Of a stretch of DNA of 64,000 bases, positions 3,936 through 26,647 are shown one piece after another. The stretch lies in NCBI RefSeq assembly GCF_003991155.1, contig NZ_CP031297.1. One strand, written 5' to 3'. Each line of letters starts with the position of its first letter. Positions within the stretch are counted from its first letter, which is position 1. The stretch comes from Escherichia coli. Its GTDB lineage: Bacteria > Pseudomonadota > Gammaproteobacteria > Enterobacterales > Enterobacteriaceae. Under the pieces are notes generated by a model that had not been told where the DNA came from, made no database searches, and was given only the letters and a program-made list of their open reading frames with translations. The position numbers and the translations under genes were made by a program.

Positions 3936-3955
3936 GTATGTGGGAACGTTGCACG
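3936..3955. repeat. isolated iteron copy (TATGTGGGAACGTTGCACGG)
   Basis: Exact iteron consensus ~2 kb from main array, 18 bp upstream of ORF start 3973. Confidence 0.6.
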
Positions 3956-3972
3956 GTTAAAGGGGGCCGCAC

Positions 3973-4581
3973 ATGAAAACGATAAAGCGGTTCATCGTAT
4001 GGGTGAATTACGGTCTTGAGGGTTGGAGCATTTTCGGATCGAGCGATGACTGGGATGAAGCGGTATCCATCCGTTCGGAAGCGATAGACGAATGCAATAT
4101 TGATGAGGAAGACATCATCTTGGCAGAAAACAAAAACGAGCTGGTGGTAAAACCTGCGGCCAAGCAAATGACGGAGTGGCACCGGGAACTGGAAGCCGTC
4201 CTTATGACCTTGGATGACTGCCAGATGGAATGTGACGGCATGACATGGGCAGTAAGCCACCTACTCAATGACGCGGGTGTACCTCATGACTGCATGTATG
4301 GTTTTGTGCGAAACGAACAGACCAAGGACATCGTGACACCGCATTTCTGGGTTGTCCTGGATGATGGGTGGTTGGTGGATCTGAGGCTACGCATGTGGCT
4401 TGGCGATCACGACAACATTCCTCACGGGGTATTCCATCCCGATAACGAGCCAGGATTTTTCTACAAGGGAGACCCCGTTCAAAACCATAAAGGGATGAGA
4501 CTGGGCAAAGCCGTCCTGGACATCATGACCGACGGAAAAATTTCACATGTGAAAGTTCCTGAACGACAAGACGGAGAGTAA
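3973..4581 (+). CDS. hypothetical protein
   Basis: 202-aa ORF with RBS; no recognisable motif. Confidence 0.5.
   Translation: MKTIKRFIVWVNYGLEGWSIFGSSDDWDEAVSIRSEAIDECNIDEEDIILAENKNELVVKPAAKQMTEWHRELEAVLMTLDDCQMECDGMTWAVSHLLNDAGVPHDCMYGFVRNEQTKDIVTPHFWVVLDDGWLVDLRLRMWLGDHDNIPHGVFHPDNEPGFFYKGDPVQNHKGMRLGKAVLDIMTDGKISHVKVPERQDGE
4540..4555. promoter_or_regulatory. parS-like palindrome TTTCACATGTGAAA (family copy, imperfect flanks)
   Basis: Core palindrome inside 3' end of ORF 3973..4581. Confidence 0.5.
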
Positions 4582-4585
4582 TAGC

Positions 4586-5107
4586 GTGGAATTTGATTAC
4601 GACAAGTCAGTATCAAACGCACATCTTGAGGCCGCAGGCTGGGGTATGGATGCCTTTAATCACTCCAACCCATTTGAGAGCCATGTCATCTATGTGCGTG
4701 ACTACCGCAACGATCACATCCGCCTGTTCACCATCAAGAAGGCTGACTTCGACACGATAAAGCTGCCGCTTCACCTTACCTCCGACATGCTGGCTTCGGT
4801 GATCGCTGAGTTCGTATCGAAGGCAGCAAAAGGGAAGTTGAATACGAAGGAGTCCGATACGCTGGCTCCTGCCTTGGTTGGCTATGCCAAATCAACAGAA
4901 ACCTACCGGAGCTGGCGGAGAGTGTCTGGAACAACAGAGCGATTGCATATGGTCATCAATATCTACGCGGGTTCTGGATTGCTGAGACCTTTCATCGCTC
5001 GGGCTCCTGAGACCGTCCTGACGACCCAAGAGCTACTGGTCTTCTCATCACAGGTTAAGAACATGGATGTATCCAATCATCCAGAGTGGTTTAGGGGCCT
5101 GAGGTAG
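4586..5107 (+). CDS. hypothetical protein (GTG start)
   Basis: 173-aa ORF. Confidence 0.45.
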   Translation: MEFDYDKSVSNAHLEAAGWGMDAFNHSNPFESHVIYVRDYRNDHIRLFTIKKADFDTIKLPLHLTSDMLASVIAEFVSKAAKGKLNTKESDTLAPALVGYAKSTETYRSWRRVSGTTERLHMVINIYAGSGLLRPFIARAPETVLTTQELLVFSSQVKNMDVSNHPEWFRGLR

Positions 5108-5109
5108 TC

Positions 5110-5631
5110 ATGAAGGCAGTTCTCTGGATATTCGTCCTTATCATTGCACCTTTCGTCATTGCGAAAGTGGACCAGTGGCGCAAACGCGGCATTGGAGACA
5201 CCTGGGCGTGGTGGAAATCAGAGAACATGCCTTATGAGCTGCGCTCGGCCACTCTGTTTTTATCCGAACAGGACATATCAACCACACAGCCGGTGCCCAT
5301 GCACGGCAGGGTTGATCAGGTGTACAAAGCCAAGAATGGGGTTCTCATTCCCTTGGACACCAAGCTGCGCCAGGTAAACCACATCTATGAGTCGGACATT
5401 ATCCAGCTCTCGGTTTACCGGGTAATTCTGTCACACAAGTACAAGGCACCCGTTGCCAAGTACGGCTATGTCCGAACCGTTGTTGAGACAGCGGACGGGG
5501 ATAGAGTCCGTTACATCAAGACAAACCTTCTCAGCGAAAAAGAAGTGGTCAAGTTGTGGCACCGCTATCAATCCATCCGTTCTGGTCAGGTAAAAACCTC
5601 CTGTTCCTGTGGCGGAAAGTTTCACATGTGA
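5110..5631 (+). CDS. hypothetical protein with N-terminal TM helix
   Basis: 173-aa ORF, RBS GAGG upstream. Confidence 0.5.
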   Translation: MKAVLWIFVLIIAPFVIAKVDQWRKRGIGDTWAWWKSENMPYELRSATLFLSEQDISTTQPVPMHGRVDQVYKAKNGVLIPLDTKLRQVNHIYESDIIQLSVYRVILSHKYKAPVAKYGYVRTVVETADGDRVRYIKTNLLSEKEVVKLWHRYQSIRSGQVKTSCSCGGKFHM

Positions 5632-5635
5632 AAGT
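5618..5635. promoter_or_regulatory. parS-like 18-bp palindrome AGTTTCACATGTGAAAGT
   Basis: Overlaps stop codon of ORF 5110..5631. Confidence 0.5.
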
Positions 5636-5727
5636 TCTGGATTGAATTAGGGTTGCCCGAATTGGGCAGCTAGGCGGGGTTGCATTTTTGAAAAGTCCTG
5701 TACGCTGGTTGGTATAGGAGGTGAATA

Positions 5728-6201
5728 GTGGCCCAGCTTAAACATAACCGCTTCGTCATGTTGGGGTCCTTGGTAGCGACGGTCGTAGCTGCTGCGAATG
5801 GCTTGAGTTTTCTCACCCTTATGGCTGGTGGAATGACCCTTATCCAGTTCATGGCTTGGAAGCAACAAGATGCTGTCCGTAGCCGGTTTAAAGCTGCGAA
5901 GGATGCGTTTGAAGCGTTGAACGTTATTGCGTTCGACAAGCACTGGGTAGGTTCAACCGCGACGGTCGCCAAAGTGTCGAACATGATCACTCCGCCCGAA
6001 CGACTGGATAAGCCCTGGGCGGTGCAAGTTCTGGCCGTAACCAAAGGTGGGACGTGGTTCGCAGTGGATCTGCAAGTGACCGGCACTGACAAGGTTCAGA
6101 TGCTTAGCCTCCACCAGCTTAGTGAAAAGGCGGCAAAGACCATGCTGGCCTTCGACCTCGAAGTGTATGAAAAATTTTTCGGAAAACCTGATGTTGCATG
6201 A
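5728..6201 (+). CDS. hypothetical membrane protein (GTG start)
   Basis: 157 aa, hydrophobic N-terminal segments, RBS AGGAGG. Confidence 0.45.
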   Translation: MAQLKHNRFVMLGSLVATVVAAANGLSFLTLMAGGMTLIQFMAWKQQDAVRSRFKAAKDAFEALNVIAFDKHWVGSTATVAKVSNMITPPERLDKPWAVQVLAVTKGGTWFAVDLQVTGTDKVQMLSLHQLSEKAAKTMLAFDLEVYEKFFGKPDVA

Positions 6202-6505
6202 GGACAATGTGATGGAAAAAGTCAAAAGCGTAGATGCCGTGGAGTTCACGGCAGCAGATAAGAAGGCGATGACCCATGCGGCATACGCCCAGTGTTTCTT
6301 CATTCTGGCCCAAGTGATGGCATTCCCTTCCCTAGGGGTGGCTGGCGCTATGGTTGCTGCTCTGTGCGGCATGATGCCGTGGTTGACCAAGTTCGCCAAA
6401 GAGGCTCCATCGAAAGCCTTTGGCATGGTGATGGCTTCACTCTGCCTTGCTCCTGTGTACGGGAAACTCTGTGAGCTGGTGGTCCACGCGATTCAGGGAG
6501 CTTGA
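6191..6505 (+). CDS. hypothetical membrane protein
   Basis: ~104 aa from internal ATG of ORF 6122..6505; hydrophobic. Confidence 0.35.
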   Translation: MLHEDNVMEKVKSVDAVEFTAADKKAMTHAAYAQCFFILAQVMAFPSLGVAGAMVAALCGMMPWLTKFAKEAPSKAFGMVMASLCLAPVYGKLCELVVHAIQGA

Positions 6506-6509
6506 GCTT

Positions 6510-7364
6510 ATGGGGGTAGTACGAGTTCCCTACCTCTTGGCTGAGCTGAAAGAACGCGGATGTGCTGATGAATCTGCTCTGGCGCAGGTTATGCAGCCTG
6601 GATGCCGAATTGGAGAGGAAGACCTACGGAAGTTGGCCGCAAATTTAGGGCTTGAAGTTTCTGAGCTGGCACCAGCGCCAGAGAACGCGGCCAACACCCG
6701 GTTCAAAGCAAAGCTGAGAGGAGGTTTGGCCTCCTTTCTTTTTGAGTACGACGGCTGTTTCCGACATGCCGAAGGCTCCAGCCATGCAGAAATGTTGGGT
6801 ATCGAGCAAGAAGACGATATTGGTCTTCCGAGTCGAGCTGCTGACGCCATGCTCCTGGAAAAGATGCTTTACCAGGTAATCGCTCGGGCTAAGTACATGC
6901 TCGGCAAAATCGACAGCAAGTTTGTCAGGTCAGAACAAGCAATCGAGTTCCGTGAGCAACTTGCTCCTGGGATCTTCAGGCCAGGGTACAGAGGTTTCCG
7001 ATTCAAGGAGGCTGCCGCTGGTGATTTGCCTACAGTCATGATTGACGGTCGGAAGTTCAATTGCGTTGCCAGTATAGCCAGAGCGCATGGACTTGATCCG
7101 GTAACGGTGCGTAGGCGCATTGCGGACACAAGGAAGGCCGCAGACAAACTCTCCAATGATGAGTGGAAACTCATCCTCGCCAAGAAAAAAGGTAAAGGGA
7201 AACCCTTCACCTATCTGGACAGGACCTACAGCAACATTGCCCAGTTCTGTCGTGAGCATCAGCTCAACACCAACCTTGTTTACCAGAAAGTCAAAGACCG
7301 GGCTGATAGCGCTGATGAAGAGTTCTGGGGACAGATAATCGAAACATGCAAAAGGAAAGACTAA
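6510..7364 (+). CDS. hypothetical protein
   Basis: ~284 aa from ATG 6510 of ORF 6447..7364. Confidence 0.45.
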   Translation: MGVVRVPYLLAELKERGCADESALAQVMQPGCRIGEEDLRKLAANLGLEVSELAPAPENAANTRFKAKLRGGLASFLFEYDGCFRHAEGSSHAEMLGIEQEDDIGLPSRAADAMLLEKMLYQVIARAKYMLGKIDSKFVRSEQAIEFREQLAPGIFRPGYRGFRFKEAAAGDLPTVMIDGRKFNCVASIARAHGLDPVTVRRRIADTRKAADKLSNDEWKLILAKKKGKGKPFTYLDRTYSNIAQFCREHQLNTNLVYQKVKDRADSADEEFWGQIIETCKRKD

Positions 7365-8323
7365 TGGCAGAAAACAAAGAGATCCCCTGGGAGAAAGAGC
7401 TCATTGAGAAGTACATGTTCACCCTGCATAAAGAGCAGGTGAAAGACCGGCGCTGGCGGACCATGTTGCGTGTGCTTCGCGCATCAGGTTTCGTGCTTCT
7501 CATGATCGGCTTCATCATTTTGGCATCTAATCCGGGTGGGATGCCGTGGCAAAGCGCCAAGGCTGGAGCCCCTCACACCGCGTATATCAACATCCGTGGT
7601 GAAATTGCTGCTGGCACACTGGCCGATGCTGATCACCTTATCCCGTCCATCCAAGCAGCATTCGACAACCCGAATTCACAAGCTGTCGTGCTTCGCATAA
7701 ACAGCCCTGGCGGTAGCCCGGTTCAAGCAGGACGGATTTATGAAGAAGTGAAGGCGCAGCGAGCCCTTCATCCGGAGAAAAAGGTCTACGCCATCATTGA
7801 TGACATCGGTGCCTCTGGCGGTTATTACATCGCCTCTGCTGCGGATGAAATCTATGCTGACCGCGCCAGTCTTGTCGGTTCTATCGGCGTCATTAGCTCA
7901 GGGTTTGGATTCACCGGCTTGATGGACAGGCTCGGCATCGAGCGCCGGGCAATCACTTCCGGAGAGCACAAAGCGCTTCTCGACCCATTCTCCCCTCTTA
8001 CCTCTGATATGAAGAAATTCTGGGAGGGCGTTCTATCGAAAACCCACCAGCAGTTCATCGAACGAGTGAAGGCTGGGCGGGGTGATCGACTGAAAGACGC
8101 CCCAGAGGTGTTTTCTGGATTGCTCTGGAACGGGGAGCAGGCCAAAGAAATTGGGCTGATTGATGGCCTGGGGAGTTTGAACTCCGTGGCGCGAGACGTC
8201 ATCCACCAGAGCAACTTGGTGGACTACACACCAACCGAAGACATCATCCGGCGACTGACCCAACGAGCGAAGCTCGAAGCCAGTTCCTTCGTGCAAGAAC
8301 TCAGCGCTGTGAAAGTTTACTGA
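7346..8323 (+). CDS. S49-family peptidase (SppA-like, signal peptide peptidase)
   Basis: 325 aa; TM anchor then IDDIGASGGYYIASAAD serine-nucleophile region typical of SppA/ClpP-fold S49. Confidence 0.8.
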   Translation: MQKERLMAENKEIPWEKELIEKYMFTLHKEQVKDRRWRTMLRVLRASGFVLLMIGFIILASNPGGMPWQSAKAGAPHTAYINIRGEIAAGTLADADHLIPSIQAAFDNPNSQAVVLRINSPGGSPVQAGRIYEEVKAQRALHPEKKVYAIIDDIGASGGYYIASAADEIYADRASLVGSIGVISSGFGFTGLMDRLGIERRAITSGEHKALLDPFSPLTSDMKKFWEGVLSKTHQQFIERVKAGRGDRLKDAPEVFSGLLWNGEQAKEIGLIDGLGSLNSVARDVIHQSNLVDYTPTEDIIRRLTQRAKLEASSFVQELSAVKVY

Positions 8324-8338
8324 TAGGAGCAGTTTGAC

Positions 8339-9199
8339 ATGACAGAACAAAGTACCAAATCACTACGTCTCGGGGTTTTTGCCGCCATTATTTTGGGGCT
8401 CGTAGGAACCGGGTTCGGAATCTACCAGCTCGTGAAAGAGAAGGATCTGGCGCAAGAGATCGCCAACGTGAAGTCCACGGTCAACCAGGTGAAAGATGCC
8501 GAAGGCGTCACCTTCAAAAGCAAGGCAGAGTTTGAGGCTGCTGTGGCCGAAAGCATCAATAAGTTTGTCGCGCAGAAACAACAAGCCGACATCGATCAGA
8601 AGTATGCCCAGTTCGAGGCGGCACCTGAAAAGGTCGAAGACGGCAAACACATCTATGGGGACCTTGGTGCCCGATTCACGCTGGTGGAGTTCTCTGATAT
8701 GGAGTGCCCCTTCTGTAAGCAATTCCACGACACGCCCAAGCAAATTGTGGATGCCAGTAAAGGCAATGTGAATTGGCAGTGGAAGCACATGCCTCTCGAC
8801 TTCCATAACCCGGCAGCTCACAAGGAAGCGTTGGCCGCTGAATGTATTGCTGAACAGAAGGGCAACCGTGGCTTCTGGGTCTTCGTGAATGAGATTTTCC
8901 ATCACAGCAAAGGCAACGGTGCCGGTGTTTCTGACTTGGCCTCTGTTGTCACGGGTGTTGGTGCTGATCTGGATGCTTTCCGTGAGTGTCTCAGCTCTGG
9001 CAAGCACGAAGATAAAGTTCAAGCTGACATCCAGAAAGCCAAGAGTTACGGCGTTAATGGTACTCCAGCAACCTTTGTTGTAGACAACCAGACAGGCAAG
9101 AGTCAGCTACTCGGTGGTGCTCAACCGGCACAAGCCATCATGGCGGTGATGCGAAAAATGATGATTGAGTCGCAACAAGACGACTCAGCGAACCAATAA
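8339..9199 (+). CDS. DsbA-like thiol:disulfide oxidoreductase, membrane-anchored
   Basis: 286 aa; N-terminal TM, CPFC active-site motif in thioredoxin-like domain. Confidence 0.75.
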   Translation: MTEQSTKSLRLGVFAAIILGLVGTGFGIYQLVKEKDLAQEIANVKSTVNQVKDAEGVTFKSKAEFEAAVAESINKFVAQKQQADIDQKYAQFEAAPEKVEDGKHIYGDLGARFTLVEFSDMECPFCKQFHDTPKQIVDASKGNVNWQWKHMPLDFHNPAAHKEALAAECIAEQKGNRGFWVFVNEIFHHSKGNGAGVSDLASVVTGVGADLDAFRECLSSGKHEDKVQADIQKAKSYGVNGTPATFVVDNQTGKSQLLGGAQPAQAIMAVMRKMMIESQQDDSANQ

Positions 9200-9201
9200 A
9201 A

Positions 9202-9219
9202 ACTTTCACATGTGAAAGT
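9202..9219. promoter_or_regulatory. parS-like 18-bp perfect palindrome ACTTTCACATGTGAAAGT
   Basis: Exact; 14 bp upstream of ORF 9233. Confidence 0.6.
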
Positions 9220-9232
9220 GGAGTGAGAACTG

Positions 9233-9661
9233 ATGATCAAGATTACAACTAAATTGGGGTGCCTTCTGGCGGGGCTGCTTGTCCTGTCGGCTTGCTCAAG
9301 CGTCCCTCAGACAAGCAACGAATACACGAAAGCCCTGGATGATACCAAACAGGTATGTGCTGCCTGTGCTCTGGTTGGTAATGACCTGCTGGTTGCCCTC
9401 AACAAGTCATGCGACAAACCCATAACCCCGGAGACTCTAACCAGCGTCATGAACAGTAACTCGATGTTTGCCGCCATGATGGCAATTAACTCCATTGGTG
9501 GAACCGACCTTTATCAGGTTTACCGTGATGCGGCTATCGACACCCTGCGATGCAATGAGATGGACACTTGGCCTGAACGGACCAAGGTGCGTTTCCAGCA
9601 GCCCGACATGCAAAAGGCGCTGGCCTTGAGGGTTTCTGTCAGACAGCAGAATGCAAATTAA
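9233..9661 (+). CDS. putative lipoprotein
   Basis: 142 aa; signal peptide with lipobox LSAC. Confidence 0.55.
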   Translation: MIKITTKLGCLLAGLLVLSACSSVPQTSNEYTKALDDTKQVCAACALVGNDLLVALNKSCDKPITPETLTSVMNSNSMFAAMMAINSIGGTDLYQVYRDAAIDTLRCNEMDTWPERTKVRFQQPDMQKALALRVSVRQQNAN

Positions 9662-9678
9662 CTTTCACATGTGAAAGT
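9661..9678. promoter_or_regulatory. parS-like 18-bp perfect palindrome ACTTTCACATGTGAAAGT
   Basis: Exact; overlaps stop of ORF 9233..9661, upstream of 9719. Confidence 0.6.
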
Positions 9679-9718
9679 CAGGTCCCTCAGGGGCCTGATT
9701 TCACTATGAGGTGTACCA

Positions 9719-10078
9719 ATGGAGTTACAAGAAGCAAAAAATGCTCTCGATAGCCTTCACCCCCACAAGGCCTCAGCCCCTTTGAGGCTTGTCATCCACC
9801 AGCCTGGAGGGATTGGTGGAACCCCTACCGTAGGGGTGAAAGCAATTCATGCTGGGTTTGATTGGGACAGCAACACCATCCTGATCTACCCGGAAGAGCA
9901 GCTCACCCGGTTGACGCCGGATGAGGTCGCCGCCATCACGAAGTCAGTATCGAAGGGACAGTCCTGGCATTCATATCAGCAGTTCAAGAAGTATCGGGAG
10001 CAGTTGGCCGAAGCCACGGAGGAAATTAATAGGCTCAGGGCTGAGCTGGGCAGGTATCAGAATAACGGGAGGGGGTAA
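9719..10078 (+). CDS. hypothetical protein
   Basis: 119-aa ORF. Confidence 0.45.
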
Positions 10079-10524
10079 TGCTAAAACGCGGAATTATCAA
10101 TCTCGCTGCTAGTTACATCATTGTTGATGCCCTACTCCGGAATGCAGCAATTTGGATCTTTGGCTTGTCCTTCTCCATTGGTGGCACTTACGTCGCTGGC
10201 GAGGCCAGTACATGGGGCGTTTACCTAGCCACTTCTGGTGCAATGACACTCTGTTCTGTCGTAACAGCCTACCTGCTCGTGACCTATCACCGCTGGGGGC
10301 TGATGACGGCCAGGGTCTGGCTGCTATTGAGTGCCTGCCTAAACGGCTATGCCGTCTATTTGAGCAGCCACAACATCCAGTTGGTGGTGGCACTGCTTTC
10401 CAGCCTGTTTATTGCTTTGTGGATGCTCAAGACCCTTGAGCAACCAGCAGTGAAGGGGACGTACAAGGTAATCGCTGATCTTCACCGTCAGCTATGGGGA
10501 ATGTTGAAGGGACAAACACAATGA
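10078..10524 (+). CDS. hypothetical membrane protein
   Basis: 148 aa, ~4 hydrophobic segments. Confidence 0.5.
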
Positions 10525-11039
10525 CGACGAATACTCAAAACGCGAACGCCAACCAGGTTCGGTCTTTACGCGACATGCTTGTCCCCGCCCTGTTGTTCTA
10601 TGTGGTGATGACGGCCATGTTTGTGGGTCTTGACGCATTCATGGATAAACCCACCAGCATGAACCTGCCATTTATGCCGTTCCTTGTCTCGATGGTGAGT
10701 TTTACCAGTGACGCACGTCGAGCGTGGGACTGGCGGAACGGGACCAAGGTTGTGGCCGTATTGACTGCGGTAGCCATGCTGTTGGCATTCATCTATCAAC
10801 TCGCGGTCGGAGAGGTAAATCTCTTAGGGGTTGGTATATACCCGGCCACAGCCATCCTTCTGTTGGCAATCACCTGGGTGATTCGCGCTATCGGAAAGAC
10901 GGCTCCTTTCCAGTTCCTGGGGAGACACCTGGCGCGGTTTGGTGCATCGAAGTGGGTCCAGCGTACCGCCGCAGTCATTGTGCTCGCGGGTGGCCTTGCC
11001 ATCACTGTCTATGCCTACTGGCTTAACCACGGGAGCTGA
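10494..11039 (+). CDS. hypothetical membrane protein
   Basis: 181 aa, multiple hydrophobic segments. Confidence 0.5.
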
Positions 11040-11269
11040 TGATGATCATTGCAACGAAGAGCGGCTTGCTGGTGGCCGCAGAACTAATCAAGGAAGAGGC
11101 CGGGTACTGGCTACTACAGCCTCGTGACCAAAAGACGCCGGTCAGAGTGAATAAGCAAGATGACAATAAACGCGCTTTCACGCATATGGGAGACGCCCTT
11201 CGCTGGGCAGGTGATCCTGAGCTTGCAAAGCAGTTCGATGCCGAGGGGGAAGAACATGCAAATTCGTGA
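11039..11269 (+). CDS. small hypothetical protein
   Basis: 76-aa ORF, start overlaps previous stop. Confidence 0.3.
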   Translation: MMIIATKSGLLVAAELIKEEAGYWLLQPRDQKTPVRVNKQDDNKRAFTHMGDALRWAGDPELAKQFDAEGEEHANS

Positions 11270-18331: not shown

Positions 18332-19276
18332 TTGGGGTACGGGATGGAACAAGCAATTCAAAGTTACTTGGCTGACGACCGGCAATATCAAGACAGGATT
18401 ACCGCAGCTCTCAGCCAGGTTGAAGAGAAAGGTGCAGAGTACGAAGCTCTTTGCCAACAGCGTGCTCAGTTGGGGATCTGGCAAAAAATTATAACGTTCT
18501 GGCAGTTTCGTCGAGACATCGCCGTTATACGTTCAGCACTAAAAGGCCATAACAGCGATTTGCGGTATTTGCGCCGTGGGAGAGACCAGCTCAAAGAGGG
18601 ATTGGTTTCTCGGGCCGTGAAGCAAGCGATTGACGGTAGCCAGATTCTGGAACGAATCACCCAAGCTCAAGATAGGCTTGACGCCGCATCTCGACTCCAC
18701 GAGAGCAACAAGCGACTGGTGGACATGGGGCAAAAAGCCTTACGTGAAATCAGTGAGGCCTCTTCCAGTATTTCATCAGCACAAACAATGGAGGTTCTCG
18801 ACCTTGTGACTGACAACAAGGGCATTTCCGTCATGTCGTCGATGTCAAACTCCTCGGCCAGCAGTGAAATAGACGATGCGAAGAGAGCTGTGAAAGCCTT
18901 CGCAAATGCGCTGGGGGATCATCGTGACATTGTGGGCTCACTGCACCACTCAATGGCAACTGAGTTTATCGATCTGGGTATGGACTTTGCCGGTTTGAAT
19001 GATGGTTTCGACTTTGGGAGCGTCTTCTCGCTGTTCAGCTTGTCGTCTGCCAGTTCCTCTCTGGACAAAGTAGAGTCTCGCGTTGAATCTCTGATGCCAG
19101 ATCTAAGACGAGCCGCCTCCAATTCGGCAGCAGAGTATGCCCGTGTTAACGAAGAGTTCTTTGGCCTAAAACAACAGGCCTGTTGCCAAGTGCATGAGTT
19201 GCTGGTGACAAATGGTATAGACGTGTCAGTCAAGCGCGTTGAGTCCGCCGTGAACAGCTACAGAGTTGGAAGGTGA
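18332..19276 (+). CDS. hypothetical protein (coiled-coil-rich)
   Basis: 314-aa ORF. Confidence 0.45.
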   Translation: MGYGMEQAIQSYLADDRQYQDRITAALSQVEEKGAEYEALCQQRAQLGIWQKIITFWQFRRDIAVIRSALKGHNSDLRYLRRGRDQLKEGLVSRAVKQAIDGSQILERITQAQDRLDAASRLHESNKRLVDMGQKALREISEASSSISSAQTMEVLDLVTDNKGISVMSSMSNSSASSEIDDAKRAVKAFANALGDHRDIVGSLHHSMATEFIDLGMDFAGLNDGFDFGSVFSLFSLSSASSSLDKVESRVESLMPDLRRAASNSAAEYARVNEEFFGLKQQACCQVHELLVTNGIDVSVKRVESAVNSYRVGR

Positions 19277-19277
19277 T

Positions 19278-19307: not shown

Positions 19308-19349
19308 GTGAGGTGATCAACAAGTCGAAATTTATTTAAAGGATAAGCG

Positions 19350-20813
19350 ATGAGCGATATTACACAGCAAATGGACAAACTTGAGATTCCAATCAAGTTG
19401 TCCTTTCCAGTCATCAACGTTAGCACTTTTGAGCTGGGCCGTGCAGAGAGCGTTTTCTCTGACATTGCAAAGAAAGTCGGCAAGCACTTTATTGTGATGC
19501 CATTCAAGAAGCTGCCCGATCCAGGCACGATGAAGGCAATGGTGGACGAGTCCAAGAAGTCCTCCAAAAACGGTGTTGTCGTGTTCGACACTTTCTTTTT
19601 CGACCGACAACGTGCAAACCCGGAAACACTCCCAGCCCTCAAGTCATCACTGACCTATCTGGAGAATGAGGGGATCAACTACATCATCGCTGGCAAAGAC
19701 GTCTTCAATGAAGAGTTCGTTTATCACATCGATCTCCCGGCTATGAGCAATCAGGAAATCCTGAAACTGCTCCAGACCTGTGAAGATAACGTGAAAGATG
19801 GTGGAGTCTTCGAGAGCAACGAACGTGCTGTCATCGCAAACCACGCCCTGGGCTTGTCACACACCCAGATGAAGAACGTCTTCACCTATTCCGCTTACTT
19901 GAAATTCAAGGGTGAAGAATACCTGGGCGAGATCCGAAAAGAAAAAGCTCACATCTTGCGTGATGTCGGCCTCGATGTGCTTGAGGCCATTGATATTGGG
20001 AATGTCGGTGGGCTCGAAAACCTCAAGGAGTTTCTCCAGATACGTAAAGCCGGTTGGGACAAAGACCTTCCGGTAAAAGGTGTCCTTCTGGCCGGTGTAC
20101 CTGGTGGTGGTAAATCGCTGACGGCAAAAGCCGCTGCCGGTGTACTTGGCACTACCTTGGTTCGCCTGGATATGGGCCGTTTCTATAGTAAGTATCTCGG
20201 TGAAACCGAGCGCCAGTTCAATCGTGCATTGCAGACCATTGAGCAGATCGCACCCGTTGTTGTGTTGATTGACGAGATGGAGAAGTTTTTTGGTAATGCC
20301 GATGGCGAACACGAAGTATCCAAGCGCCTGCTGGGCTCTTTCCTCTACTGGCTTCAAGAGCGCAAGAAGAAGATCTTCATTGTGGCGACGGCCAACCGGG
20401 TTCAGTCGCTGCCTCCTGAATTGATGCGAGCTGGCCGCTGGGACCGAGCATTCTTCATTGATCTGCCAAGTGTGGCTGAGCGCCAGAAGATTTTCGAGAT
20501 CCACCTCGCCAAGCAGAAGGCCAACATCGCCGCGTTCGATATGCCTACGCTACTGCGTACCACCGAGGGATACACCGGGGCAGAGATTGAACAGGCCGTC
20601 ATTGACGCGATGTATCTGGCGAACGCTCAGGACAAAGAGCTCAACAATGAAGCGCTGGTGGATGCGGTCACTCGCATTACCCCGACCAGTGAAACTCGCC
20701 GAGAAGACATCAACCAGATTCGCAGTTTGCGGGATCAAGGCTTCTATCCGGCCAATAACTTCGATGTTCAAGAGCAGAATGGCTCTGGACGAAAACTCGC
20801 CATCGAGGACTAA
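19350..20813 (+). CDS. AAA+ ATPase, classic clade (Ycf46-like)
   Basis: 487 aa; Walker A GVPGGGKS, Walker B VVLIDEMEK, SRH ATANRVQSLPPELMRAGRWDRAFFIDLP; ~230-aa unassigned N-domain. Confidence 0.8.
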   Translation: MSDITQQMDKLEIPIKLSFPVINVSTFELGRAESVFSDIAKKVGKHFIVMPFKKLPDPGTMKAMVDESKKSSKNGVVVFDTFFFDRQRANPETLPALKSSLTYLENEGINYIIAGKDVFNEEFVYHIDLPAMSNQEILKLLQTCEDNVKDGGVFESNERAVIANHALGLSHTQMKNVFTYSAYLKFKGEEYLGEIRKEKAHILRDVGLDVLEAIDIGNVGGLENLKEFLQIRKAGWDKDLPVKGVLLAGVPGGGKSLTAKAAAGVLGTTLVRLDMGRFYSKYLGETERQFNRALQTIEQIAPVVVLIDEMEKFFGNADGEHEVSKRLLGSFLYWLQERKKKIFIVATANRVQSLPPELMRAGRWDRAFFIDLPSVAERQKIFEIHLAKQKANIAAFDMPTLLRTTEGYTGAEIEQAVIDAMYLANAQDKELNNEALVDAVTRITPTSETRREDINQIRSLRDQGFYPANNFDVQEQNGSGRKLAIED

Positions 20814-20874
20814 GCGATTAACTTTGTCATGCCGGAACACGGCATGACCCCCGAAACAACTCAGGAGTGATGAG

Positions 20875-21267
20875 ATGAGCCATATCGTAAAAGGCAAGGT
20901 GCAGGTCGCCTACAAAGACAAAGAGCTGCTGTTGAAGGCTCTGGAGGGAGTTGGCGTCGTTGTTGAAAACGAAAAGCTATACCGCGTGGGCGCTGGCTAC
21001 ACCTTCGAGAAATACCCGATTGTTCTGATCGACCAGAACAACAAGGAGCACCGGATTGGCTACAAGGAAAAAAACGGTGTTTGGGAGCAGTACCAGGAAA
21101 ACTACGGCTCTTATGGCCGCTGGACGCAGCAGGCAAGCAGCAAGGTGCAGGATCGCTACATTGCCTTCCACTACGAGCAGCAGTTGAAAGAGGAAGGTTT
21201 CAGCGTGACGGTGAAGCAGCATCACGATGGCACTTTGGAACTGGAAGCTGAGGAAGCTGTTTGGTAA
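20875..21267 (+). CDS. small conserved protein, DUF1257-like
   Basis: 130 aa; N-terminus MSHIVKGKV..LLLKALEGVG resembles DUF1257 as I recall it; own RBS. Confidence 0.5.
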   Translation: MSHIVKGKVQVAYKDKELLLKALEGVGVVVENEKLYRVGAGYTFEKYPIVLIDQNNKEHRIGYKEKNGVWEQYQENYGSYGRWTQQASSKVQDRYIAFHYEQQLKEEGFSVTVKQHHDGTLELEAEEAVW

Positions 21268-21315
21268 TAGCGCCAAGGCAATCAGATTAGTTGAACTTAA
21301 CGACGAGGTGACAAA

Positions 21316-21510
21316 GTGAAAAAGGTAAACATCAAGATCAAGGGCGGCAAGATTGCTGCCGATTTCACGGGGTTTCAGGGTAAGACCTGTGAAGCGCTGG
21401 AGCAGCGTATTCGCCCGGAAGAGCTCGAAGTCGAAGAAAAAGAGCTGAAACCCGAGTACCACTTCAATGCTGGTCAAACCCAGCACGAAACGGAACAGAA
21501 CGAATGGTGA
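21316..21510 (+). CDS. small conserved protein, DUF2997-like (GTG start)
   Basis: 64 aa; MKKVNIKIKGGKIAADFTGFQGKTC; RBS GAGGTG. Confidence 0.45.
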   Translation: MKKVNIKIKGGKIAADFTGFQGKTCEALEQRIRPEELEVEEKELKPEYHFNAGQTQHETEQNEW

Positions 21511-22688
21511 TGAGAAGGACAGGGCGCGTCCCCCTTCTTTTGCTGGTTGGTCTCATGGTCGCAGCTCCTGCGGCCTTTGCCAGTGACTTTGTGACTGGCG
21601 TAATGGTGGGGCAAATGCTCTCAGATGACTCAGGCAGCAAGAAGGTAGAGGACACTGGCCCGGAGAGCAAAACGGTCATTGATTACCATGACGGTCAGCC
21701 AGTTGTGACCAAAGTGGAGGCCTTCAAAAGCAATAAATGGCGCAAACTGGATGGCCCTCAGGGCGGCTATTTTGTTTGCCCAGGTGAATACCGTAGCTAT
21801 TCGGGAAGGCTGCGTTGTCGCGTCCATGATGACGGGCTCAATGGCTTTATGGGCGGTATGACTGATGCTCAGGAGCTACCGCTCCAAGAAGCTCTGACCA
21901 AGTTGGAAGGTAAACCCATCTCCCTGCAAACCATTGAAGTCCACGGGAACAACCTGGCAGTCAAATACCAGTTAGCACCACCAGCACAAACGCACGTCAA
22001 AACTCAGGACCTGGGGGTGGTTAAGCAAGATGGTGAAATGCAGAAGGTTGCCAGCCAACCACCAGCGCTATCCATAGAGACTGCACCAAAGAGTGAACCT
22101 CCCAAGCAGATTGGTGCTGCACAAGACACCGACCGCAATACCAGTGCGTTTCAAAGTCCGTTCGAGGAGGTAAGTGACTCCATGATCGGTCTAATGGATA
22201 GCTCTTTCGTCAAAGTCATAGCGGGGTTGATGCTGGTGTTTGGGGTTGCTAGTGGAATTATGAGGCAGAGCCCATCAGGAATTGTGATGGGGATAATGCC
22301 TGCAATTATGATCATGACCGCGCCAACGGTTATTCGTACCATGTTCGATACAGGCGCGGCCAGTACCAAGCCAGTGGAAGATAGCGGAAGCTCATTTCCT
22401 TTCTTCTTGGTGGCAATAGTGCCGGTGCTGATTTTCTTTGCCTATAGAGCTTTTATGAACAACCGGAGCGACTCCGAAATTGATGAGTTGTTAAGAGAAG
22501 CCCGACGTGCTGAAAGGGCTGAACGACCAAGCAATGAGCCTCCCTCAGTGGATGAACTCCGTGAGCGCCAGCAACAAAACCCAGAAAGAGAACCGGTGGT
22601 TGTCAGCTCATCAGCTCCGGCACCAAAGGTGCAAAAGGAAGAGCCAATCGAAGTACAGCCAGGCAAGCGCAAAATTATTTTGGATTAG
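21504..22688 (+). CDS. membrane protein with periplasmic N-domain and cytoplasmic tail ending PIEVQPGKRKIILD
   Basis: 394 aa; signal peptide, ~200-aa periplasmic region, hydrophobic segments, charged tail. Confidence 0.55.
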   Translation: MVMRRTGRVPLLLLVGLMVAAPAAFASDFVTGVMVGQMLSDDSGSKKVEDTGPESKTVIDYHDGQPVVTKVEAFKSNKWRKLDGPQGGYFVCPGEYRSYSGRLRCRVHDDGLNGFMGGMTDAQELPLQEALTKLEGKPISLQTIEVHGNNLAVKYQLAPPAQTHVKTQDLGVVKQDGEMQKVASQPPALSIETAPKSEPPKQIGAAQDTDRNTSAFQSPFEEVSDSMIGLMDSSFVKVIAGLMLVFGVASGIMRQSPSGIVMGIMPAIMIMTAPTVIRTMFDTGAASTKPVEDSGSSFPFFLVAIVPVLIFFAYRAFMNNRSDSEIDELLREARRAERAERPSNEPPSVDELRERQQQNPEREPVVVSSSAPAPKVQKEEPIEVQPGKRKIILD

Positions 22689-22699
22689 TGGGGTAGGTT

Positions 22700-23047
22700 A
22701 TGAGCAAAAAGCGCATCGTAATCAAAAATGGTGAGGTCTGCGGGTTTGCCGATGAGGTTTCCTTCAAAGGCCTTGAAGTGCAGGAATACAGTAAAACAAG
22801 GGTTTCGCGCATCGTGCCGACGAGCGGCATTCTAATGATTGCGTTCTATGTTATTCGCGGACTTTGTTCAGACGAGTCAAAGATTGCGGCATGGACTCGT
22901 GTTTGGCGTTGCCAGTGGAAGGTGCTGATCGACGGTAAAAGCTATGGACCATTCAGCAGTCGTGCGGATGCTATCTCGTTCGAGAAGGACGAGATCTACA
23001 AACAAGGCAAATTCTTTGCCGATGCCACTCACGAGGCGGCAGTATGA
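22700..23047 (+). CDS. hypothetical protein
   Basis: 115-aa ORF. Confidence 0.4.
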   Translation: MSKKRIVIKNGEVCGFADEVSFKGLEVQEYSKTRVSRIVPTSGILMIAFYVIRGLCSDESKIAAWTRVWRCQWKVLIDGKSYGPFSSRADAISFEKDEIYKQGKFFADATHEAAV

Positions 23048-23472
23048 TGACACGGGCGGCTATGGCCGCGCTGTTATCCGCGTTGGTAATAGGCCTTGTG
23101 TCTGATTTGTCCGCACAAGAGCTGGTGGTAAGCCAGGTGGCTATAGACAAGTCCACTGAGGTGGAGAAAGAAGCTACCTTCCACAACCGCAAGTGGGTGT
23201 TAAGGACGGGGCAGGTTAGTGGATTCTTCATCTGCCAAGGAGATAACAAAGACATTTACTACCGGCATGACAGGGTGGGCGCTCACTGCCAGAAGACATC
23301 GACTGGGTGGCGCAATGTACTGGGTCTCAGGGACGATGTTCCGGAAGTTGAGCTGAGCGTGTACCTGGGGACCGTTGAAGGTGTCCCCGTGAAAGTCCTT
23401 CATCAGGAAGTGGATGGTTACGATCTGAAAGTGCAGTACAAGGTTGCACGTAAAGGGTCAGCAAATGAGTGA
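23044..23472 (+). CDS. secreted hypothetical protein
   Basis: 142 aa; signal peptide MMTRAAMAALLSALVIGLVSDLSAQ. Confidence 0.45.
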   Translation: MMTRAAMAALLSALVIGLVSDLSAQELVVSQVAIDKSTEVEKEATFHNRKWVLRTGQVSGFFICQGDNKDIYYRHDRVGAHCQKTSTGWRNVLGLRDDVPEVELSVYLGTVEGVPVKVLHQEVDGYDLKVQYKVARKGSANE

Positions 23473-24028
23473 GAGTGTGCGTCGGTCAACGCCGATGGTA
23501 AAGATTAAAATCCTGCCGAGTTTCGTAGGGGTTCCCTTCCCGTCGGTGCTACTTATCGTTGCGGGGCTCCTTAATGGCCCTTTGTGGGGCTTTGCCGCAT
23601 TCGTCTTTCATATCGTCATCAAGCGGTACATCTACAGAGAATACCGGAGGTTGCCATATCCGATGCCAACCGGCTCAAGGCCTATGGATGAGTTGAGCGA
23701 GCTCCTTGTAAAGGGGATACCGGAGGAATTTTTCCGGCGGCTTGACGCAGCTTGCAGCTCTGATGCGTCAGTACAAATAACCTGCCCAAAGAAATACCGG
23801 CTGCTCAAAATGTCGTTGAATCGCTATGCCAACCGCGCTGGTTGTTACCCGCAGTTCCGGGAGGGGGATGAAATAGCGATTGAGGTAACAGAGCAGAGAC
23901 CAAGAAAAGCAGGAGCAGGGAAGGGCTTTCCAAGTATTCAAGTTCTGAAAGCGTCAGAGGGTGTTCTGAGTGAACCGGAGCAGCCTATCGAAATTCAGAA
24001 AGATAAGCGCAAGATTATCTTGGATTGA
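23465..24028 (+). CDS. membrane protein with C-terminal tail PIEIQKDKRKIILD
   Basis: ~187 aa from ATG 23465; N-terminal TM helices; tail paralogous to 21504..22688. Confidence 0.5.
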   Translation: MSESVRRSTPMVKIKILPSFVGVPFPSVLLIVAGLLNGPLWGFAAFVFHIVIKRYIYREYRRLPYPMPTGSRPMDELSELLVKGIPEEFFRRLDAACSSDASVQITCPKKYRLLKMSLNRYANRAGCYPQFREGDEIAIEVTEQRPRKAGAGKGFPSIQVLKASEGVLSEPEQPIEIQKDKRKIILD

Positions 24029-24039
24029 GGTGGGTTGGA

Positions 24040-24609
24040 ATGCGGTCATTTTTATACAGAATATTGCTTCTTTGCTTCGTCATTATCGTCCAGATAGGGC
24101 TAATCGCCATTGATGCGAGCCCGTTGGTTGTTGCTATGTTCCTCTCGCTAACAGCTTTAGTCGCTGGGGTCTGGATGGCGTACCTTCATTCCCGATTTTT
24201 GATGGCGGTGACTCCAGTAGTTATCTCTGTGCTAATGGCGACCCTCGCCATGAAAATGTTTGAGCCGAGACTCTTTGTTTCTGCCAGCGAAAAAGGCTGG
24301 TTCCCTTTGTCATTGTTCGTCTCGATACCGTTTTACTTCTACTTGAGTTACTTGCTTGAGATAGAGGAGAAGAGACGTACATTCCGGGCCAATGTGATTG
24401 GGTTTTTGCGTGGAGTTTCGGAAGAGATCCGTCGTTCAACCAGAGAGCATAGAGATCAAGGTGAGATAAGACACGGTGGAACAGAGCTGGGGAGTATTGA
24501 CGAACTACAAAGGGGCGAGGCCAAAGAGCCAGAAGTCATCAGCTCTACATCGGACCAGAAAGAACAAGGCACTCCCAAGCGAGACAAGAGAAAAATCATT
24601 CTGGACTGA
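24040..24609 (+). CDS. membrane protein with C-terminal tail KRDKRKIILD
   Basis: ~189 aa from ATG 24040 (RBS GAGGTG); several TM helices; same terminal motif. Confidence 0.5.
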   Translation: MRSFLYRILLLCFVIIVQIGLIAIDASPLVVAMFLSLTALVAGVWMAYLHSRFLMAVTPVVISVLMATLAMKMFEPRLFVSASEKGWFPLSLFVSIPFYFYLSYLLEIEEKRRTFRANVIGFLRGVSEEIRRSTREHRDQGEIRHGGTELGSIDELQRGEAKEPEVISSTSDQKEQGTPKRDKRKIILD

Positions 24610-24611
24610 AC

Positions 24612-25157
24612 ATGGAACAAATCAGAAAAGGCTTAACCCTCGAATACGCAAAAGAGAAGCGTGAGAAGCTCTTGGCGGAGCTCAAATCAGATGAACACTA
24701 CAGCCAGACTGAAACAGTAGCCTATGGGCACCACGACCCGCTCAGCGTTCCTGTGGCAGCCTGCGATAGTTGTCATGGCCGGGCGCAAATGCAGAAGGTT
24801 ATAGGTCCTCCTGTGCGCTGGAATATGGTCTGCCTGGGTTGTGGGAAGGCGATCCAACAAATCCAGAAACGACCGTGGCAAGCAGCAATGGCGTGGAACC
24901 AAATTAACTTGGGAACACAGGACTACAGACAACTGCCCCTCTTTGGACTTGGGAGTCTGTCTCCTGAATCAGCAAGACAGAGAATGGTGGGAATACGCAG
25001 GAACCTGGAGCTGAGAAAGAGCCTCGCCGGTATCGAGAGGACGATAGCCCACAAGGAAGGTCAACGCCCACCAGGGAAAGAGTACCAGCAACGACTGGAA
25101 GCATATCTGCAATGGGCCATGCTGGCGCTGAGGTTGCTCAAAGTCAAAGCAAGTTAG
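24612..25157 (+). CDS. hypothetical protein with Cys4 zinc-ribbon-like motif
   Basis: 181 aa; CDSCHG ... CLGCG. Confidence 0.45.
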   Translation: MEQIRKGLTLEYAKEKREKLLAELKSDEHYSQTETVAYGHHDPLSVPVAACDSCHGRAQMQKVIGPPVRWNMVCLGCGKAIQQIQKRPWQAAMAWNQINLGTQDYRQLPLFGLGSLSPESARQRMVGIRRNLELRKSLAGIERTIAHKEGQRPPGKEYQQRLEAYLQWAMLALRLLKVKAS

Positions 25158-25176
25158 TGGTGAGAAGGAAGAGAGA

Positions 25177-25206
25177 ACCCGGTACTGTAAAGCGCCGGGT
25201 TTTTTA
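25177..25206 (+). terminator. rho-independent terminator
   Basis: ACCCGG...CCGGGT stem followed by T6. Confidence 0.5.
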
Positions 25207-25216
25207 TGCCGCCCTG

Positions 25217-25244
25217 TTTACAGTATCAAAAAGTGATGCTATAA
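25217..25244. promoter_or_regulatory. 28-bp palindrome family copy (TTTACAGTATCAAAAAGTGATGCTATAAA)
   Basis: Upstream of ParB-like gene 25274. Confidence 0.5.
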
Positions 25245-25273
25245 AGTGAGCAAGTCACAAGGAGAACCAACGA

Positions 25274-26212
25274 ATGGCTGTTATCAACTCACTCCGCGCT
25301 CTCAAAGGCGTAACCGCCCCCGAAGAACTGAAAAAAGGGGATGGATTCACTATCTCTCCTCAGCTTCTGCTGGAGGAAGAAGGGTTTAACACCCGTGGCG
25401 CTTTCTGCGAGGACTACTACGAGCGCCCGGACATCAAAGCTGGTATTCGAGTGCTGGCCGATGCTTACAAGCGTGGCGACTATGTTCCGCCGATCATCGT
25501 CAAAGTTATCGACGGAAAGGTGTATGTCCGTGAAGGTCATCGCCGTCGCCGCGCCATCCTGCTTGCTATAGAGGAAGGTGCCGACATCCAGTTCGTGCAG
25601 GTCGTAGAGCACAAGGGCGATGAAGCCGAACAGAGCCTTCTGATCGCCACCAGCAACGATGGGCTCCCTCTTTCTCCACTTGAGCGAGCCGTGATCTACG
25701 CTCGGCTTGCAAACTGGGGGTGGAGCGACCAGATGATTGCCCAACGTGTTGGCCGCTCGGCTGAGCACGTTCGTATCGCCCGTGCCCTTTTGGAGATGCC
25801 TCTGGAACTGAAACGGATGATTCAGGAAGGCTCTGTGGCTGCCACCTACGCTCAGGAGCTCTACAACGAGCACGGCACCAACGCTGTTGAGATCCTGAAA
25901 AAGGCGCAGGAAGAACAGGCCAGTGGCAATGACGGCAAGAAGGCCCCGAAAAAACTGACCAAAAAGTCTGTCGAGAAAGGTCCCCGCCTGGGCAAAAAGG
26001 TGGTTGAAGCCATGCACCGAGGCGTGAGCTCTATTACCAGTCGTCTGGACAACATCAAGCCGAACGATGACGGTGAAACGTTCACCCTTACCCTGAGCCG
26101 GGAAGATGTTGATGCGTTTCAGGAGCTGAAAGCCAAGCTGGCGGAGCTGGAGCCCAAAACTGACGAGTCCAATGAAGACCAGCAAGAGCTGGATTTGGCG
26201 GGTAATCAGTAA
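25274..26212 (+). CDS. ParB/Srx-domain protein (second, orphan ParB-like; KorB-like candidate)
   Basis: 312 aa; ParB N-domain motif VREGHRRRRAIL, HTH region, Lys-rich C-terminus; no adjacent ParA. Confidence 0.7.
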   Translation: MAVINSLRALKGVTAPEELKKGDGFTISPQLLLEEEGFNTRGAFCEDYYERPDIKAGIRVLADAYKRGDYVPPIIVKVIDGKVYVREGHRRRRAILLAIEEGADIQFVQVVEHKGDEAEQSLLIATSNDGLPLSPLERAVIYARLANWGWSDQMIAQRVGRSAEHVRIARALLEMPLELKRMIQEGSVAATYAQELYNEHGTNAVEILKKAQEEQASGNDGKKAPKKLTKKSVEKGPRLGKKVVEAMHRGVSSITSRLDNIKPNDDGETFTLTLSREDVDAFQELKAKLAELEPKTDESNEDQQELDLAGNQ

Positions 26213-26368
26213 TGGGGCGCTGTACTGTTGAGGATGCCATCCAGTTGCTGGAAGGGGGAACCATTGTTGCGGTCGTACCGGCGTCATCCGGACCAGATAC
26301 GCTGGTGGTTTCCTCTATCAGGCTTGAATCCGGACTGACAGTACAGTTTTCCCCTCCAGCGGCAGCCA

Positions 26369-26647
26369 GTGTCAGTGTTCAGCTCGCGGAGCTCGATGAT
26401 GAACAGTGACAAGAAATCGTCTGAACTAGCCAGACTGAGGCGTCAGCATCAGCTAGTTTGCTCTGTCATCGCAGCCTTGCTCATCTGTGCAGGTATATAT
26501 GGGACCGTTGCACGTTTGGGCTTCATCCTGATGGCGCCATTGTTTGTTATCGCCTTAGGTGTGTTAGTCGATGCGTTCCTGCCAAGGGTAAGTTGGTTCT
26601 TCTGTGTGCGGGACGTGAGAGACATATTTGGGTGGAGAAAACGATAG
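26369..26647 (+). CDS. small membrane protein
   Basis: 92 aa, hydrophobic; contains an isolated iteron copy. Confidence 0.3.
   Translation: MSVFSSRSSMMNSDKKSSELARLRRQHQLVCSVIAALLICAGIYGTVARLGFILMAPLFVIALGVLVDAFLPRVSWFFCVRDVRDIFGWRKR
26495..26514. repeat. isolated iteron copy (ATATATGGGACCGTTGCACG)
   Basis: Near-consensus iteron ~24.5 kb from main array. Confidence 0.5.

Follow-up and report, generated by a model that had tools for sequence, protein, structure and literature searches.

Replication initiators with two winged-helix domains bind full iterons as monomers and inverted half-sites as dimers. In replicons governed by such proteins, extra iterons or remote sites serve negative control, for example incA of plasmid P1, incC of plasmid F, the additional iterons of RK2, and the RctB 39-mers and crtS. 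The extra iterons of P1 incA, F incC and RK2 are bound by the initiator, are dispensable for initiation and exert their negative control by titration and handcuffing. RK2 carries a single inverted iteron beside its origin region. Here we report on single iterons that lie outside the replication origin (oriV) of an IncC (A/C2) plasmid and which we call orphan iterons. They were studied in a stretch of 64,000 nucleotides of Escherichia coli DNA (contig NZ_CP031297.1, assembly GCF_003991155.1), hereafter the window, which begins with the ATG of the initiator gene repA and represents the conserved backbone of a conjugative resistance plasmid of this group.

Among the plasmids that bring multidrug resistance (blaCMY-2, blaNDM and others) to enterobacteria and vibrios, those of the IncA and IncC groups rank with the most important. 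IncA plasmids are reported to be compatible with IncC plasmids despite near-identical iterons. Replication control of these plasmids has been little studied, and the searchable papers stop at repA and the 19-bp iterons. The IncC iterons were assigned in PMC7433901, which cites Llanes 1996 and Harmer & Hall 2015. No account of orphan iterons in A/C plasmids is found in searchable full texts; an earlier mention in Llanes 1996 or Harmer & Hall 2015 is possible.

An earlier note on this DNA described two single iterons, at 3936..3955 and 26495..26514, as lying far from the origin and proposed that they bind Rep for handcuffing or for transcriptional regulation. We find that the plasmid carries four such sites, all conserved in diverged relatives, and that at least the two intergenic ones are very likely functional binding sites for RepA maintained by selection.

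Results

Four single iterons outside oriV

The iterons of oriV share the invariant core T.TGGG.....TGCACG, and their consensus agrees with the published IncC iteron yaTRTGGGNNcgcTGCACG (PMC7433901). On a position weight matrix (PWM) built from the 14 oriV iterons, these iterons score 20.6-33.1 bits. A degenerate 19-mer pattern search of the 64 kb, allowing up to three mismatches, returned 11 sites against 0.04 expected from shuffled sequence. Nine of them lie in oriV and the other two are orphans, labelled A (3937) and C (26496). Two more sites complete the set, namely B (3002, inverted) and D, upstream of repA and outside the window (Table 1). The best non-iteron site of the window reaches 11.6 bits, and the chance ceiling, taken from the maxima of 200 Markov simulations, is 12.6 +/- 2.5 bits. 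The complete sequence of a close relative, pAI1547M_P1 (170,268 bp), was assembled and scanned with the PWM as a circle; besides oriV and the four orphans, nothing in it scored above 15.5 bits. A chance origin of the orphans is rejected on the basis of the 0.04 sites expected against 11 found and of the PWM gap from 20.6 to 11.6 bits.

All four orphans keep all 11 invariant core positions and their scores (24.0-30.0 bits) fall within the oriV range. They are single full-length iterons, not inverted half-sites, and each is separated from oriV by genes. B lies 1.0 kb, A 1.95 kb and C 24.5 kb from oriV, so that three of the four sites (A, B and D) fall within 2.4 kb of oriV on a 170-kb plasmid.

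Both copies of the earlier note are thus real, with exact consensus sequence, although each of its intervals includes one surplus base at the 5' end and its list omitted B and D. Its description of the copies as far from the origin holds for the one at 26.5 kb, but not for A, which is 1.95 kb from the last oriV iteron. As the note says, A lies upstream of the open reading frame (ORF) at 3973; it ends 17 nt before the ATG. The note was also right to place C in a small ORF, which spans 26369/26396..26647; from C to the GTG-start ORF at 26647 the distance is 131 nt. The many partial matches of like stringency that the note had named as a refuting outcome of a full scan did not appear.

Table 1. 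Features of the replicon and of the surroundings of the orphan iterons. Coordinates refer to the window unless stated otherwise.
Feature	Coordinates	Strand	Remarks
repA	1..1101	+	A/C-type replication initiator, 366 aa; ORF call
oriV iteron array	1223..1982	+	14 direct 19-bp iterons; degenerate 19-mer search and PWM
Perfect DnaA box TTATCCACA	1630..1638	+	inside oriV
Second perfect DnaA box	1889..1897	-	inside oriV
AT-rich oriV end	2001..2150	.	GC 0.28-0.34
Small hydrophobic protein gene, 144 aa	2138..2572	-	no Pfam match at E<=0.01
PAPS (3'-phosphoadenosine-5'-phosphosulfate)-reductase-like gene, 371 aa	2590..3705	-	PF01507, E 3e-8; contains orphan B
Orphan iteron B, GATATGGGAAGACTGCACG	3002..3020	-	inverted relative to oriV; 24.3 bits (PWM span 3000..3022)
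Sigma-70-like promoter, TTTACT-16-TATAAT	3751..3778	-	toward PAPS-reductase gene; consensus match only
14-bp motif GTGGYTTTTYGGTG, two copies	3838..3851, 3900..3913	+	62 bp apart, upstream of orphan A
Orphan iteron A, TATGTGGGAACGTTGCACG	3937..3955	+	exact consensus; 30.0 bits (PWM span 3935..3957)
First gene of rightward block, 202 aa	3973..4581	+	no family match; corresponds to pVCR94 vcrx009
ParB-like regulator gene (HTH_ParB)	25274..26212	+	distinct from partition parB
83-aa ORF, two hydrophobic stretches	26396..26647	+	contains orphan C; in ParB-like regulator operon
Orphan iteron C, TATATGGGACCGTTGCACG	26496..26514	+	exact consensus; 24.0 bits (PWM span 26494..26516)
GTG-start ORF, 80 aa	26647..26889	+	downstream of orphan C
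Partition parB, KorB-like gene	30210..31391
Orphan iteron D	stbA/mobI intergenic region, ~1.16 kb upstream of repA, outside window		29.6 bits in pAI1547M_P1

Conservation across relatives

Over its first 4.6 kb, the window has 100% identity with many IncC plasmids and 88-89% with IncA plasmids. All four sites are found at orthologous positions in IncA, in the divergent pT413A and in plasmids of Xenorhabdus nematophila, Shewanella baltica and Vibrio rumoiensis; overall, orthologues of the orphans are conserved across six to eight diverged lineages. When the columns of the four sites are compared, none of the 44 at oriV-invariant positions varies, whereas 14 of the 48 degenerate ones do (Fisher p = 5e-5). 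Taken by themselves, the intergenic sites A and D give the same picture (0/22 core versus 11/24 degenerate columns, p = 2e-4). Such confinement of variation to degenerate positions is what selection for an iteron-recognising protein predicts. In alignments of the diverged intergenic DNA, conservation is concentrated in islands at A and D, and A is the best-conserved block of its intergenic region in five lineages.

B and D are present in every A/C-lineage plasmid examined, except for D in Edwardsiella; B is also kept in PROV073 and in the common IncC type. Two of the eight third-codon positions of B vary, versus 47% gene-wide, and both are degenerate or flanking positions. In the Xenorhabdus plasmid (L009) an insertion of ~124 bp (7537..7660) splits the PAPS-reductase gene and leaves B intact. 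The two halves are 86-90% identical to IncC, and the split gene is uninformative as a natural test of B because the rest of the gene is equally intact. Site C shows one change in five other lineages, at a degenerate position. It is not distinguishable from its surroundings, and its host ORF of 83 aa is well conserved throughout.

More distant plasmids show the iterons amid replaced flanks. In an Edwardsiella piscicida plasmid (L008; RepA 92% identical) the PAPS-reductase gene is absent and, rightward of oriV, ~1.3 kb of sequence does not align to IncC; site A lies within the sole 25-bp stretch of 100% identity across this region. Where B would be, three inverted iterons with an exact spacing of 49 bp (6050..6170) sit directly upstream of the small membrane-protein gene, the orthologue of the 144-aa gene. 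Sites C and D are missing from this plasmid. A metagenomic A/C-like plasmid (L019; RepA 87% identical) has no PAPS-reductase gene and carries a toxin-antitoxin pair after oriV; D is retained, as is an iteron 5' of the gene orthologous to that at 3973. On an unrelated backbone with a RepA 83% identical (L020), four orphans in both orientations lie beyond oriV, and two of these precede parA by 160-260 bp. A further relative, at 62% (L021), has one inverted iteron ~100 bp before repA. The trait belongs to the replicon and not to the backbone, as orphans occur in L019 with different intervening genes and in L020 on an unrelated backbone.

Evidence of covariation was sought in pAsa4b and in a Pseudoalteromonas plasmid, whose iterons have diverged (GGTAGGTTCGCTGCACGGT and TAGAGGTTTGCTGCATCGGTT, respectively). 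None was obtained, since orphans are lacking in the 50 and 37 kb examined. The orphan arrangement is therefore common in this Rep family and not obligatory, and the replicon type does not require it.

Site C is dispensable. The region of 281 bp around C is present in 391 PLSDB records versus 1047 for the region of site A (~37%), the latter being near-universal (1063 records match a 4.6-kb repA-oriV query). The backbone segment with the ParB-like regulator operon (25200..27300) occurs in only ~37% of A/C records in PLSDB. The commonest IncC type has the C-bearing segment replaced next to the sul2/floR resistance island, with A and B intact. In a Providencia plasmid a deletion ends inside the 83-aa ORF and C is lost. 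The site is deleted in both plasmids checked directly (L017 and L018), and gene-table coordinates suggest that the conjugative plasmid pVCR94 lacks the C segment too. Because its region is found in ~37% of A/C plasmids and two plasmids checked lack it, C is no essential control element.

The initiator and its origin

RepA is 100% identical to the IncC protein annotated as 'RepB family plasmid replication initiator'. Its sequence matches no family in Pfam (E<=0.01) or NCBIfam (E<=1); one homologue carries a precomputed PF01051 annotation, and Rep proteins of Buchnera aphidicola plasmids are among the homologues. An AlphaFold2 model from an alignment of 34 sequences (mean predicted local distance difference test score 87.4, predicted template modelling score 0.86) was compared with the PDB by Foldseek. 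Domains 2-3 of RctB are the best match (5tbf, E 1.5e-7), followed by RepE54 with iteron DNA (E about 1e-6) and pi with iteron DNA (2nra, E 1.5e-4). By its modelled structure RepA is a double winged-helix (WH1-WH2) iteron initiator of the RepE/pi/RctB type. This fold, the direct-repeat array, the DnaA boxes and the AT-rich region are features that the A/C replicon shares with the iteron-type theta class (RepE/pi/TrfA/RctB).

The iteron array begins 122 bp past the end of repA. Boxes with one mismatch to the DnaA consensus at 1644, 1867 and 1899 bring the oriV cluster to five; DnaA boxes cluster in oriV only, and the one-mismatch boxes nearest to the orphans are at 3476, 27015 and 169414. In the AT-rich end of oriV (GC 0.28 at 2051..2150) lies a palindrome, AAAGATCTAAAGATCTTT, with two GATC sites (2073..2090). 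It is also kept in pAsa4b and in the Edwardsiella plasmid, despite different iterons and flanks, and may serve the origin as an element for Dam/SeqA or a host factor. Between the iterons, AGTGGTTCCCGTAG occurs twice and a 20-bp unit containing GATTGAC occurs twice (1376..1402, 1519..1558).

In the 1.4 kb upstream of repA there is no iteron-like site above 4 bits except D, and no CGTGCA; no inverted repeat was found in the 870 bp before repA. A role of the orphans as the autoregulatory operator of repA is rejected, as no inverted iteron half-sites lie 5' of the gene. In RNA-seq data of pVCR94 the repA transcript persists while mobI is silent (PMC4207636 Dataset S1), and because of this the repA promoter probably lies downstream of D.

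Sequence around each site

The divergent region upstream of site A is AT-rich (GC 0.31 at 3701..3800). Its motif GTGGYTTTTYGGTG has a relative, GGTTGCTTTTCGGTGGCTTTTTGAT, 17-30 bp upstream of D (~169075..169100 in pAI1547M_P1, equivalent to ~19075..19100 in L005). Motifs of this type are kept across lineages, including Edwardsiella and L019 (~8965..8980). In the window the exact GTGGYTTTTYGGTG occurs only as the two copies at site A; three looser copies have one or two mismatches, a count seldom reached by shuffles. GTGGYTTTTYGGTG may be a site for a second protein acting with RepA.

The identity of the gene behind A with vcrx009 rests on a coordinate conversion made in this analysis. In pVCR94, vcrx009-011 are near-silent (0-19 reads per kilobase per million mapped reads, RPKM; PMC4207636 Dataset S1). 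A sigma-70 consensus scan found no plus-strand promoter at A or C; such a scan is uninformative for weak or activated promoters. Site B is read in frame in its gene as R-Y-G-K-T-A-R-L.

The operon that harbours C begins with a gene of the kind named 'R55_24/parB-like regulator' in PMC10954446. The 83-aa ORF overlaps the stop of the upstream 65-aa ORF and the start of the next ORF (TAGTG in IncC, ATGA in the others), and C is read in it as I-Y-G-T-V-A-R. For the IncC plasmids examined, the PLSDB/RefSeq gene tables do not list this ORF; it is open in all six lineages and shows a mix of synonymous and conservative changes. The GTG-start ORF has no counterpart in pT413A or in the Xenorhabdus, S. 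baltica and V. rumoiensis plasmids, where an ORF of 120 aa follows directly.

Site D lies mid-way in the stbA/mobI region, ~40 bp from the AcaCD box driving stbA (converted Table S3 coordinates) and outside the mapped oriT, which abuts mobI. Just 5' of the stbA start there are three tandem GATTGCTTTT units (pAI1547M_P1 ~168985..169025; L005 ~18985..19025), kept in all lineages and plausibly the centromere/operator of the ParM-type stbA partition system. Near them, where the published stbA AcaCD box should be, stands TTGCCCAAAAGGGGCA.

Discussion

Orthologous conservation, substitutions at degenerate positions and the survival of the iteron amid replaced flanks make it very probable that the orphans are extra docking sites for RepA. 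A and D very likely function in RepA binding and are under selection; the same may be said of B and C, which are less strongly supported. The Rep-binding interpretation of the earlier note is upheld to this extent, while the sequence fits both of the roles that it offered, handcuffing and operator.

What RepA would do at these sites is a less certain matter. We tentatively favour an auxiliary control of replication, in which the orphans would sequester RepA and pair with oriV (titration, and handcuffing or looping). It is favoured because the orphans are full single iterons, three of the four are near the origin, two are intragenic and the trait goes with the Rep family from one backbone to another. 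In initiators of the RepE/pi/TrfA/RctB type it is the monomer that binds a full iteron; monomers of RepA would occupy the orphans and thereby be drawn off oriV. Being next to the origin, A, B and D would be duplicated immediately after initiation. RepA bound to an orphan could then pair with RepA bound to oriV, in cis by looping and in trans by handcuffing, and the clustering of A, B and D at no more than 2.4 kb from oriV fits a cis action on the origin. Titration and pairing together would damp re-initiation and help to keep the copy number low. RepA sitting on A, 17 nt before the rightward block, might hinder expression of the block, as a by-product or as a second function. C would be an accessory copy, the loss of which is tolerated without loss of plasmid viability. 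RepA occupancy, titration, pairing and the effects on copy number or transcription are what we infer from these patterns.

Several points weigh against an auxiliary control of this kind. In the searchable literature, no experiment was found that measures RepA binding, copy number or expression in relation to these sites. Four single sites are added to 14 oriV copies, which gives a modest titration capacity, and the known control loci are clustered (9 iterons in P1 incA, 5 in F incC); the orphans of IncC and IncA are all solitary, and a cluster is seen only as the three inverted iterons of the Edwardsiella plasmid. By region count, C is absent from ~63% of the A/C plasmids in PLSDB, where the checked plasmids without C are classed as conjugative. 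For B and C alone the bias of variation is not significant (p = 0.23), and coding constraint confounds their conservation. pAsa4b and the Pseudoalteromonas plasmid, with an A/C-like backbone, have no orphans in the stretches examined. Finally, one gene family follows A in IncC, Edwardsiella and L019 alike, which fits an operator at least as well, and iterons stand 5' of genes elsewhere (three in Edwardsiella, two in L020), which fits an operator equally well or better.

That RepA on a single iteron represses or blocks neighbouring operons, and so ties backbone expression to the level of the initiator, is possible, if on balance unlikely as the principal role; it explains the data nearly as well as auxiliary control, and the two roles are compatible. 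The candidate targets would be the vcrx009 block (A), the membrane-protein and PAPS-reductase genes (B), stbA/mobI (D) and the ParB-like operon (C). The position of A, between an AT-rich promoter region and the ribosome-binding site, fits an operator, and A holds this place before the same gene family in Edwardsiella and L019 despite rearranged flanks. In pVCR94 hardly any transcript comes from the three genes behind A, but other causes of their low expression are possible, and the consensus scan shows no sigma-70-like promoter overlapping A or C. The three inverted iterons of Edwardsiella are directly 5' of a minus-strand gene, the L020 iterons are upstream of parA and the inverted one of L021 is upstream of repA; B and C, however, lie within coding sequences of translationally coupled operons and not in promoters. 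D is situated in the divergent stbA/mobI control region close to the stbA AcaCD box, yet it is clear of the mapped stbA start, the mobI promoters and oriT, these last two within ~185 bp of mobI. Repression of the RepE/pi/pSC101 type employs Rep dimers on inverted half-iterons, whereas the orphans are full iterons.

A broader scheme, in which RepA would also be a coordinator for the whole plasmid and couple replication status to other backbone functions through dispersed single iterons, seems to us rather improbable. Here D would act between the stbA promoter, with its AcaCD box, and oriT/mobI, while A would gate the first rightward operon and, with B, bracket the AT-rich segment. Loops formed between D, oriV, B and A would create a DNA domain, dependent on RepA, with repA and its neighbours inside, and replication, partition and transfer would be switched together after every initiation. 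The recurrence of orphans in L020 and L021 would be a recurrence of this design.

It is improbable that B and A, as an inverted pair around the AT-rich segment (GC 0.31, 3701..3800), form part of an extended origin, be it a second RepA-dependent opening or helicase-loading site looped to oriV in the manner of R6K alpha and beta, or an orientation-dependent barrier that would fix the direction of replication. The layout of inverted iterons, AT-rich segment and direct iteron does recur in IncC, IncA, the other A/C lineages and Edwardsiella, and L020 has inverted and direct orphans beyond oriV; L019, on the other hand, has no inverted copy, and the distance from B to A varies (933-935 bp in five lineages, 1062 in Xenorhabdus, 576-696 in Edwardsiella, 345 in L020). 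The segment is the second most AT-rich spot of the first 5 kb, but a good divergent promoter coincides with it and suffices to explain it. In R6K single or paired remote iterons cooperate with the gamma cluster by pi looping. Between B and A, however, there is one DnaA box with at most one mismatch, at 3476 and intragenic, versus five in oriV. A secondary origin is kept only as an alternative of low probability because DnaA boxes cluster solely in oriV.

Equally improbable is that the orphans are neutral relics of a longer array split by gene insertions, or of iteron recombination, which would persist through the youth of the A/C lineages and coding constraint on B and C. Insertion would fit the differing cargo between oriV and A, which consists of the membrane-protein gene alone, of this gene plus PAPS reductase, or of a toxin-antitoxin pair. 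The dispensability of C, the non-significant conservation of B and C taken alone, and the plasmids pAsa4b and Pseudoalteromonas, which manage without orphans, point in the same direction. Evidence against neutrality comes from A and D, whose flanks have diverged to ~50% or beyond alignment while the 11 core positions stay invariant, and from the recurrence of orphans with a Rep of the same family on the unrelated backbone of L020; moreover, an origin as relics is compatible with a present function.

Three further identities are rejected: the orphans are not a known RNA element (no match in an Rfam scan of the window), not parS (they are non-palindromic 19-mers, set apart by the published description of parS) and not AcaCD boxes (the published description and coordinates differ).

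New here is the extension of the observation from two to four sites; auxiliary iterons as such are already known elsewhere. Conserved extra RepA sites are concrete and inexpensive targets for the study of low copy number, of replicon-based incompatibility and of a possible link between RepA and the modules for partition and transfer. Plasmid-curing constructs might make use of extra iterons, should these depress replication in trans. If the orphans are only weak titration sites, they would be an ordinary variation on P1, F, RK2 and R6K.

With incA of P1, incC of mini-F and the extra iterons of RK2, the A/C orphans share that they are iterons of the origin class, on the same replicon and outside the minimal origin. 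The P1 and F loci differ in being tight clusters (9 and 5) next to rep, whereas the A/C sites are singles spread from -1.2 to +24.5 kb, two of them intragenic. The alpha and beta origins of R6K are alike in having one or two iterons kilobases away from a cluster of seven, and RepA is modelled with the fold of pi; the remote iterons of R6K, however, mark alternative initiation sites, while the A/C orphans come without DnaA boxes or origin features. In chromosome 2 of Vibrio cholerae, RctB is an initiator of the same structural class, with sites outside the origin that tune initiation. There, the 39-mers and crtS are unlike iterons and remodel RctB; the orphans of A/C plasmids have the usual iteron sequence and share a replicon with oriV. 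The Rep operators of pSC101, mini-F, R6K and pPS10 resemble the orphans in being iteron-derived sequences outside the array; they are bound by Rep and affect transcription, but they are inverted repeats bound by dimers over the rep promoter, in contrast to full single iterons at or in other genes. Within the IncC backbone itself, there is a likeness in distribution to parS, a short protein-binding motif scattered over the backbone and partly at promoters according to PMC10954446. As described there, IncC plasmids have 12-14 parS sites, each a 22-bp inverted repeat with a symmetrical 14-bp core and AAAC/GTTT flanks, bound by ParB. These are palindromic ParB sites, whereas the orphans are non-palindromic and match the RepA iteron.

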